Source: a virus
Lineage: Duplodnaviria > Heunggongvirae > Uroviricota > Caudoviricetes
Virus record (IMG/VR): IMGVR_UViG_3300008114_000011
Strand: one strand, 5' to 3'
Length of the DNA stretch: 64,000 bases
Part shown: in pieces, positions 59,137 to 61,158 of the stretch
Position numbering within the stretch: the first letter of the stretch is position 1
How the letters are laid out: each line of letters begins with the position of its first letter
Program-made: the position numbers and the translations under genes
Notes under the pieces: generated by a model
What the model was told of the DNA's origin: nothing
Databases searched by the model: none
What the model saw: only the letters and a program-made list of their open reading frames with translations

Positions 59137-61158
59137 TTAAACCCATTTATCATTTTTTCTTTTAAGAAGTTTATCTCCTTCTAATTTATAAAACTTATAT
59201 TTTTTATCAATAGAAGTTATAACATAATATTTATCTGGTCCTAATTCCTTATATCTTTTCATATTACCAGTTACCTTAACACCATCCACTTCACCACCCA
59301 TTTGTTTGGCATAAGCCCATTTAATATAGTGTGGATCAACGTGTCTCGATCTTAATTTATCTTGTTCAATTGATGTTTCTAATGTAGATAATAAGTGAAT
59401 AAAAACTATTTCATATCCATTCTCTCTTGCTAAATCAAATATATCCTTAATGTGTTCATAACCAGTATCAGTATATTCTTTACCAGCACCGGTTGTATCA
59501 TAGATAAAGTTTTGACCAGTTTTCATAAAACCTTTCATCTTCATTAAGTTTAATTCAGACGCATTTTTTGTTCTACCACCTTCTTCTTTTTCTTTTCCTT
59601 TATAATAAACATTTGGATCTTTTGTGTAAAGAAGTGAAATATCATCAGTTGAGAAGTCTTTAATGTTTGTATTTTTTGTATGTAAATAATTATTCACAAA
59701 GTGTGAATTATGTAGTATTGTTGGTAAGTTACCACCTATGAAGTTATGATGTTTATCTAAGACTATATCATAAACATAATCATTATGTTCTATTGTTGAT
59801 ATATTAGTTATTTTATCAAAAAATAAGTTATTGTGATGATTAATATATGTTTCTGGTATATAAACATTATTCTCATTTAAAAAATTACATATTTTATTAA
59901 AACGTTTTTTCGTTATTACTCTTCTATATTTATAACTTCTAGTAAATCTATATCCAGTTTCATCTTCTGGTATAAATTCGGTAATAAAAAATAAAAAAAC
60001 AAATTTAAATAATAAGGATTTTTTATCATATATAGTCAGGGTAACAAGTGATGATTTTAATTTATTTGGAGAAATATTAAATAAATATATTAGATGTAGT
60101 AGAAAAAAAATTAAACCAATTGAAAAAACTAATACAAATATTGGTGGATTTATACCAAATGATGACATGGTGGAATTAATTTATAATAATAAATTAAACA
60201 TTAAAAGTGCATAAGATAAATCAGTAGCCATTTCATATGACGATGTGTAATATTCAACTCTATTTTCAAATACAGAACCATCACAAGATAAATAACTACC
60301 TAAGAAATGTTTTAATGATTCACTGTTTGATATTATATCATCCGGAATTCTAACTTTATGTGATTTGTTGCCAAAAATATAATCACCACATATTTCAGAA
60401 ATATTTGAAATAAAATCATATTTATCTTTTTTAAATCTTCGATTTCCTAATTTAATATCATCTGAATATTGAACACTATGTCTTATTTTTTTAGATTTTA
60501 CTGTTAATATTTTATTTTCTTTTTCGACACATTTTCTAAAATCATCTATTATATCAATATCTATATTTGTTAGTGTTAGAAATTTACTATTTTTATTTTT
60601 TATAAAATTACCATCACTTAACGAATAACCAATAATCCTTGATAATTCATTACTTATTTTTGATTTATTATTAAAAGTGTTATTTATTATTCTAGGTCTG
60701 GCTAACTTATCATCTATTGTTATTTCTGATGATTTTTTCCAAATAATATCACCGTTTTTTTCTAAAACTAATAATGGGTGTATAGGTGTAACTTTTATAT
60801 CAACACCCGTTTGTGTTTTTATATTTATTAACTTTTCTGAATAGCCTCTATATAAACTCGAAATCTCATTTTCCACAAACTCACCACTATCATTTAATGA
60901 TTTAACATATAAGTTTTTAACAGGAATATTTATTTCACCAATTTTTGATTCGGTGTTATAGTTATCTATCAATTTACCAATTTTAGTCATTTTATTATTC
61001 ACTAAAATGGGTGTATTATATTCTAAGCACTTTCCAATACCGGGAGCACCGATTAGGAAAACAGCTAATCCTTTTTCTTTATCTAATATTTCTGGAATTG
61101 GTTCATTCTTTGACCATTCTTCTTTTATGTAATTGAAAAATTCTTTTATATATCTCAT
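59137..61158 (-). CDS. P-loop kinase-like gene interrupted by a LAGLIDADG intein; intein reading frame contains an in-frame TAA (60181-60183)
   Basis: Walker A GAPGIGK|C-LEYNTPI (intein start) ... [23 protein letters not shown]|S (intein end), restoring GAPGIGKS. Confidence 0.6.
59707..61029 (-). mobile_element. intein with LAGLIDADG homing-endonuclease domain (~441 codons)
   Basis: blocks A (CLEYNTPI), C (RIIGYSLSDGNF), E (HFLGSYLSCDGSV), F/G ([16 protein letters not shown]). Confidence 0.65.

Follow-up and report, generated by a model that had tools for sequence, protein, structure and literature searches.

How does the gene of a small phage kinase come to be read as two open reading frames (ORFs) separated by a single stop codon and a peptide of odd composition? 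The question is raised by the minus strand of a 64,000-nucleotide stretch of a Caudoviricetes genome (IMG/VR record IMGVR_UViG_3300008114_000011; the whole stretch is hereafter called the window), in which an upstream ORF of 325 amino acids (aa; 60181..61158) and a downstream ORF of 343 aa (59137..60168) lie in the same frame. A first-pass annotation of the sequence had recognized at this locus a P-loop kinase whose Walker A loop is interrupted by a LAGLIDADG intein, and had seen one in-frame TAA at 60181-60183, which we find between the two same-frame ORFs as described; it had left three options for the stop, namely a decaying endonuclease with an inactivated host kinase, a sequencing error, or something unusual such as readthrough. 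We replace these options with one concrete, checkable lesion, a small inversion inside the endonuclease domain of the intein. The element is of an ordinary kind, and its lesion is unusual.

An intein in the Walker A motif of a phage kinase

The intein comprises 441 codons (window 61029-59707, minus strand) and is situated inside the Walker A motif GAPGIGK|S. The N-extein, 43 codons that we aligned with the intein-free homologues P0014 and P0015, ends in the first part of this motif, GAPGIGK (61030..61158, minus strand), and the boundary with the intein reads LAVFLIGAPGIGK|CLEYNTPI in the 325-aa ORF. The C-extein (59137..59706, minus strand), consisting of 189 codons and a stop, starts with the Walker A Ser, which is also the +1 splicing nucleophile. 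Joining the exteins in silico yielded a 232-aa protein with the Walker A motif GAPGIGKS restored, as the first-pass annotation had anticipated, and with a predicted junction peptide of GAPGIGKSHFVNNY in the ligated kinase. This spliced protein matches P0014 (91% identity) and P0015 (88%), both of which are 232 aa long and carry the motif uninterrupted (GAPGIGKS or GSPGIGKS; the intein-free insertion site in P0014 is TTCTTAATCGGAGCTCCTGGCATCGGGAAA|AGTTTTTTCGTCAATAATTATTTACACACA), and a homology search retrieved many further intein-free 232-aa orthologues.

Both ends of the intein stand in their native orientation on the minus strand. The N-terminal part (60196..61029), which matches the Pfam families Intein_splicing and LAGLIDADG_3 and is colinear with residues 43-319 of the intein-bearing homologue P0002, contains Cys1 (Cys44 of the ORF; 61027-61029), block B with the sequence TPIH (residues 124-127; within 60769-60795), the first LAGLIDADG motif RIIGYSLSDGNF (60604-60639), and the second motif HFLGSYLSCDGSV (60271-60309), which is followed by a helix running to ...SYALLMF. 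The C-terminal part (59707..59968), which matches P0002 from residue 402 and positions 100-155 of the Intein_splicing model, contains the linker (L)EDETGYRF..., blocks F and G, and the terminal His-Asn. All splicing residues are present (Cys1, TPIH, a DYVYD...HNF block, His-Asn, and Ser+1, in the context ILHN|S), as are both LAGLIDADG helices with their catalytic acidic residue, the two blocks being located where the first-pass annotation had put them. The unmodified 325-aa ORF alone clears the Pfam cut-offs for Intein_splicing (40.6 bits; cut-off 35.8) and LAGLIDADG_3 (41 bits; cut-off 22.5), the latter matching in two stretches, and a provisional reconstruction of the full protein scored 78 and 44.8 bits, respectively. 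Because these domains are recognized and the spliced exteins match 232-aa intein-free proteins, we regard the intein call of the first-pass annotation, the boundaries, and the Walker A site as solid. By its sequence features the element is best described as a class-1 intein with a nested double-motif LAGLIDADG homing endonuclease.

The host gene appears to encode a phage P-loop kinase of the AAA_33, zeta-toxin, or polynucleotide-kinase-like type, a family that is weakly typed: scores against Pfam AAA_33 (24.2 bits; cut-off 27) and Zeta_toxin (21.7 bits; cut-off 22.3) fall just under the cut-offs, the PHROG matches are to 'ATPase' (1.9e-8) and 'polynucleotide kinase' (8.9e-7), and homologues of the kinase carry the JGI annotation 'predicted kinase'. 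By tblastn, the window contains no further copy of the kinase. A group of extein fragments (P0056-P0065) was considered as further split alleles and rejected, as these are truncated or fused intein-free genes.

A segment of the endonuclease domain is inverted

An unbroken translation through the intein and both exteins fails at the TAA (60181-60183) and across 76 antisense codons. Six-frame translation showed what these codons are: the odd low-complexity stretch that the first-pass annotation had seen after the stop is present, with its hydrophobic run at 60079-60138, but its nature had been missed, since it is the antisense of a Lys/Asn-rich peptide encoded on the plus strand. The antisense codons are mostly hydrophobic because the sense strand is rich in Lys and Asn. 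The plus-strand peptide, GINSVIKNKKTNLNNKDFLSYIVRVTSDDFNLFGEILNKYIRCSRKKIKPIEKTNTNIGGFIPNDDMVELIYNNKL (GINSVIKNKK...ELIYNNKL; 59969..60195, plus strand), is the piece of the endonuclease domain that is missing from the minus strand. In BLASTP the plus-strand peptide of 59969-60196 aligned colinearly with residues 320-395 of P0002 (63% identity, E=6e-23), and the 343-aa ORF resembles P0002 solely from its own residue 70 (ETGY) onward. Likewise, a tblastn search of the window with the reconstructed intein placed residues 279-354 on the plus strand (100% identity) and the remainder on the minus strand. Even the stop codon and the new start are products of the antisense reading: the TAA arises when ATT|TAT, which encodes Ile-Tyr in ELIYNN, is read in antisense, and the ATG of the 343-aa ORF (60166..60168, minus strand) follows 12 nt past this stop.

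When 59969-60195 was flipped in silico, the locus became one stop-free ORF of 673 codons, colinear with eight homologues (P0002-P0009) that are uninterrupted full-length kinase-intein proteins of 589-692 aa with the intein at the same site. Over the equivalent region, the alignment of these homologues reads ...SYALLKFGINSVIKNKKTKLNGK.F.SYIIRI...NIGG...NKL...EIGY...YRR.... As the DNA stands, the second LAGLIDADG subdomain is incomplete, covering only positions 5-48 of the 82 in the LAGLIDADG_3 model (29.1 bits), and the flip lengthened this second match to positions 5-80 (46.5 bits). A single event, an inversion of ~228 bp within the endonuclease domain, therefore explains the TAA, the hydrophobic junk, and the apparent division into two ORFs. 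The inverted segment is 227-229 bp long, since flips of 59969-60195 and 59968-60196 yield an identical sequence (a 1-nt ambiguity). We evaluated two other sets of breakpoints and rejected both. A smaller flip of 59987-60138, between local inverted repeats, keeps the frame but leaves the TAA in place and introduces 13 residues that are absent from the homologues, while a larger inversion extending to 60211 (which adds ...NIKSA) overlaps the opposite-strand codons of the conserved ...ALLMF, in which ALL is better conserved.

Judged from its sequence, the element would be a disrupted intein and not a functional cis-splicing one. An in-frame stop next to a low-complexity stretch can signal a small inversion that gene callers report as two unrelated ORFs; at this locus, JGI labels one of the two ORFs 'replication factor C small subunit'.

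The same arrangement in separate samples

The 325-aa ORF is present on 16 contigs. We fetched four loci from four separate samples (JGI 3300021575, JGI 3300008264, Logan SRR9661227, and NCBI GCA_031546785.1), and all four were 100% identical to the window at the DNA level over up to 6.8 kb, with both ORFs present, although two of the contigs end within the 343-aa ORF. Since separate samples and different pipelines (JGI, Logan, NCBI) agree, misassembly or base error is very unlikely, and the sequencing error contemplated in the first-pass annotation finds no support in these loci. The arrangement is real DNA.

We also searched for a version of the gene without the inversion. No ~673-aa protein of near 100% identity was found among 5.8 billion clusters, where the next relative was 56% identical. 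A gapped pattern of the junction had no match in viral_contigs, a scan that is uninformative as the strain is absent from that collection, and a 36-mer taken from intein sequence outside the inversion matched neither viral_contigs nor metagenome_contigs, indicating that these collections do not include the strain. Megablast of the locus against GenBank phages returned no match. The relatives detected by tblastn were distant, located in uncultured huge phages (43.5% identity), together with unrelated phage inteins in terminase, RecA, and helicase genes.

Consequences for the endonuclease and the kinase

To place the lost segment in a structural context we used the AlphaFold model of the intact homologue P0002 (mean predicted local distance difference test score 72.5), for which the best Foldseek matches were the endonuclease-bearing inteins TliVMA (7qss), PI-PfuI, and PI-SceI. 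The equivalent of the inverted piece in this model comprises two strands (324-332 and 335-345), a helix (347-359), a loop, and a second helix (384-392). The model thereby identifies the part predicted to be lost as the second beta-hairpin of LAGLIDADG subdomain 2, the helix that follows it, and part of the connection to the HINT domain. With this piece inverted, the endonuclease fold is disrupted, and the precursor ORF is divided into two fragments, N-terminal (325 aa) and C-terminal (343 aa). We infer that cis-spliced kinase cannot be made from this locus and that the kinase has therefore most likely lost its function in this phage.

We propose the following sequence of events. A class-1 LAGLIDADG intein would have invaded the phage P-loop kinase at its Walker A motif; later, a non-homologous event in the lineage of this phage would have inverted 227-229 bp of the endonuclease domain in place; and the antisense piece would then have supplied the 76 nonsense codons and the one TAA, breaking the endonuclease and truncating the precursor. 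Taken together, that the inversion occurred in place and is fixed, with loss of both kinase and endonuclease function, seems to us a probable account, although one held with some reserve. It preserves part of what the first-pass annotation suggested, in that the endonuclease is defective and the precursor truncated, and departs from it in that the lesion is an inversion instead of gradual decay.

Age of the inversion and selection on the locus

The inverted piece has aged no worse than the rest of the intein. Of 19 columns that are strongly conserved among the homologues it matches 16, with 63% identity to P0002, and the rest of the intein matches 80 of 93, with 59% identity. Comparison of the extein with intein-free P0014 gave a synonymous divergence (dS) of ~0.70 and a nonsynonymous divergence (dN) of ~0.053 (dN/dS 0.076), and with P0015 as the outgroup, private amino-acid changes numbered 9 in the window lineage and 11 in P0014. 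Sequence comparison gives no sign of relaxed constraint in the extein, the inverted piece, or the splicing blocks, which suggests either that the inversion is very recent or that the gene still works. We take the event as recent because the inverted piece, the splicing blocks, and the exteins show no decay.

Several observations weigh against an inactivating inversion of recent date. Under strong purifying selection, the absence of decay is equally expected from continued function, and the occurrence of the phage in several samples implies that the lesion is not strongly deleterious. The un-inverted allele of the strain was not found, so that the ancestral state rests on homologues that are at most ~60% identical in the intein. 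Finally, most homologues have 4 residues more than the reconstruction at the right junction, where small losses could have occurred. This difference is a detail of the junction, because the NIKSA and ALLMF readings overlap and one alone can be ancestral.

Alternative explanations

The alternative that survives best takes the unrelaxed constraint on the extein and the recovery of one genotype from several samples as marks of a working gene. It holds that the locus is a newly formed split intein: the two adjacent ORFs (N-extein with IntN, and IntC with C-extein) would be co-translated, with ribosomes re-initiating on the second at the ATG that lies 12 nt beyond the TAA, and active kinase would arise by trans-splicing of their products. 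Neither HINT half is damaged and no catalytic splicing residue is missing, yet TliVMA, the closest solved relative, largely loses splicing without its endonuclease domain (PMC8966425). The break falls inside the endonuclease domain, a topologically canonical split site, but all eight intein-bearing homologues are contiguous and the split arrangement is not conserved across lineages; moreover, with a single clonal genotype known, nothing points to selection for the split form. The antisense reading yields a stop and, 12 nt on, an ATG, a pair that resembles the stop and initiator Met of the gene-breaking model, and a Shine-Dalgarno site is not needed here, where only 2 of 46 genes have one and neighbouring genes overlap by ATGA. 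However, this ATG is preceded by TCCACC, whereas the real genes of this phage have A/T-rich leaders, and the C-fragment would open with ~69 junk residues whose mean Kyte-Doolittle hydropathy reaches 2.7 over a 19-residue window. As that leader holds a strongly hydrophobic segment, the C-fragment would likely insert into membranes or aggregate. We consider a functional split intein unlikely, while giving it some weight.

If trans-splicing did prove true, the locus would capture a stage rarely seen in nature, the emergence of a split intein, and would supply a new split pair; one rearrangement within a contiguous endonuclease-bearing intein would have been enough to split it, with no foreign endonuclease gene inserted. 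If the halves do not trans-splice, it is a recently killed accessory gene.

It is very improbable, in our view, that the inversion is programmed and reversible, acting as a phase-variation switch of the kinase or the endonuclease. Segments of ~228 bp are of a size typical of invertible elements, the inverted piece shows no decay, and the phage encodes a tyrosine recombinase with Phage_integrase and SAM-like N-terminal domains (29970-30770, plus strand) that might catalyze such a switch. This gene is 29 kb distant, however, and we rejected the recombinase as an invertase of the intein segment since the boundary repeats do not match: microhomology at the breakpoints amounts to 1 nt only, and the best symmetric inverted repeat across them has 17 of 30 matches (P ~0.05 versus random position pairs). 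The strongest local inverted repeat (59960-59986 / 60139-60165, 78%) does not bracket the segment because its right arm lies 30 nt inside the right breakpoint. The populations sampled also give no hint of switching, as the ORF of the broken orientation is on 16 of 16 contigs and the near-identical ~673-aa protein expected from the other orientation is absent from the clusters searched. Given the 1-nt microhomology, the lack of a significant boundary repeat, and the distance of the recombinase, we regard the inversion as an illegitimate, non-homologous event and not as a site-specific switch.

Least credible is that the locus reflects an assembly or sequencing artefact, a simple nonsense mutation, or a readthrough codon: library amplification can generate small inversions as chimeras and the recovered copies, all 100% identical, could in principle share an origin, but the same sequence came from independent samples and different assembly pipelines, a point error cannot account for 76 consecutive codons that match homologues on the other strand only, and readthrough, which the first-pass annotation had raised, would still yield ~76 antisense junk residues past a TAA that is the ordinary stop of 75 of the 107 ORFs of at least 80 aa in the window, where the sole tRNA gene, a tRNA-Leu with anticodon TAA that fits the AT-rich codon usage (26015-26084, plus strand), is not a suppressor and stop codons give no indication of being recoded.

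Relation to known inteins and homing history

The non-homologous inversion that we favor befell an intein of a familiar type. The best solved match, both by sequence (E=2e-20) and by the fold of intact homologue P0002 (E=2e-23), is 7qss, and an archaeal replication factor C (RFC) protein with an intein after GPPGVGK (P0010) is 30% identical. Like the VMA-b inteins TliVMA (7QSS) and PhoVMA (7QST) and the RFC inteins, the element has the class-1 arrangement of Cys1, TxxH, and His-Asn with a nested double-motif LAGLIDADG endonuclease, and like them it is inserted inside a Walker A motif, GxxGxGK|[ST/C]. The VMA-b site lies in the P-loop of the V-ATPase (PMC8966425), and the P-loop is a common preference for intein insertion (PMC4760082). 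The hosts of those P-loop inteins are replication or ATP-synthase ATPases, whereas the host here is a small kinase of an AT-rich jumbo phage, and an inversion has disrupted both the endonuclease domain and the reading frame.

Two other groups of elements offer partial parallels. In degenerating inteins such as PhoVMA, with its decayed endonuclease, and the mini-inteins, endonuclease function is lost and the HINT blocks are kept, as at this locus. In known cases of degeneration, substitutions and deletions stay in frame, so that splicing persists and with it the host protein (PMC8966425); in contrast, one rearrangement here also adds a stop that truncates the precursor. Fractured genes with split inteins (Dassa et al. 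2009, PMC2677866) share with our locus the adjacent ORFs bearing first the N-half and then the C-half of an intein, the break at or within the endonuclease position, and a disrupting sequence that creates a stop and a Met, both of which the gene-breaking model needs at the break (PMC2677866). There, however, the break is due to insertion of a free-standing endonuclease gene, and the arrangement is retained from locus to locus, whereas here the intein's own endonuclease segment is inverted, in one genotype and with long junk tails.

Identities to the window are discordant between intein and extein: P0005 is 74% identical in the extein and 47% in the intein, while P0002 and P0003 are 51% identical in the extein and 60-61% in the intein. 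Because the two similarities disagree among alleles, the comparison indicates horizontal homing of the intein between divergent kinase alleles. Such discordance and the coexistence of intein-free alleles (P0014, P0015) in related phages are as in the homing-cycle model, in which the element is a P-loop intein in the degeneration phase, broken in an unusual way. With intact, intein-free, and broken alleles and their discordant histories, this kinase family could be used to study homing dynamics in uncultured phages. Among the loci of homologues (L008-L012), those of P0005 also carry a separate, free-standing LAGLIDADG_3 gene nearby.

Genomic context

The window has a G+C content of 28.5% and many small ORFs. 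Boxes of the TATATTTGT type, which resemble the Bacteroidota -7 element TAnnTTTG, were seen upstream of the starts at 1534, 13063, 18700, 37589-38272 (minus strand), and 39153, and a 574-aa protein encoded at 56025-57749 has a type IX secretion system (T9SS) Por_Secre_tail sorting domain. Combined with the missing Shine-Dalgarno sites, these sequence features suggest a Bacteroidota host, and the source fits an uncultured jumbo phage of Bacteroidota, its longest contig measuring 172 kb.

The N-terminus of the kinase, MRYIKEFF, had been described in the first-pass annotation as a shared leader, and this proved correct: the motif M[KRL][YKHNF][ILV][KQ].[FY] (MKYLKLFENF and similar) starts 10 of the 107 ORFs and has one internal occurrence only. 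Nine of the ten ORFs are on the minus strand (9796-10344, 10375-10914, 10914-11210, 16988-17560, 33886-34317, 40518-41150, 51549-51932, 60181-61158, and 62295-62906) and one is on the plus strand (4143-4403). Orthologues of the kinase keep the motif. It could be an A/U-rich start region for initiation without a Shine-Dalgarno site, or a shared N-terminal helix.

A gene for translation initiation factor IF3 (58500-59033, plus strand; Pfam IF3_N and IF3_C on the identical gene of locus L001) is convergent with the kinase. Elsewhere in the window, selfish elements abound in the region 46405-54587, where genes for free-standing homing endonucleases at 46405-47193, 48863-49846 (HNH/T5orf172-like), and 53754-54587 (GIY-YIG with NUMOD1) are interleaved with an NAD-salvage pair that consists of a ribose-phosphate pyrophosphokinase-like (PRPP-synthetase-like) gene (47190-47963) and NAMPT (49882-51462). 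A NUDIX gene is also present in the window. Two pairs of small plus-strand ORFs, the adjacent paralogs 31647-31946 (MTLEELRDRPLEEKVDYICDYV...) and 31943-32242 (MTLEELREKSLEEKVNYIFDYV...), and the ORFs 28969-29217 and 29276-29644, which have ...ENLNISDVSES... in common, look from their sequences like local tandem duplications.

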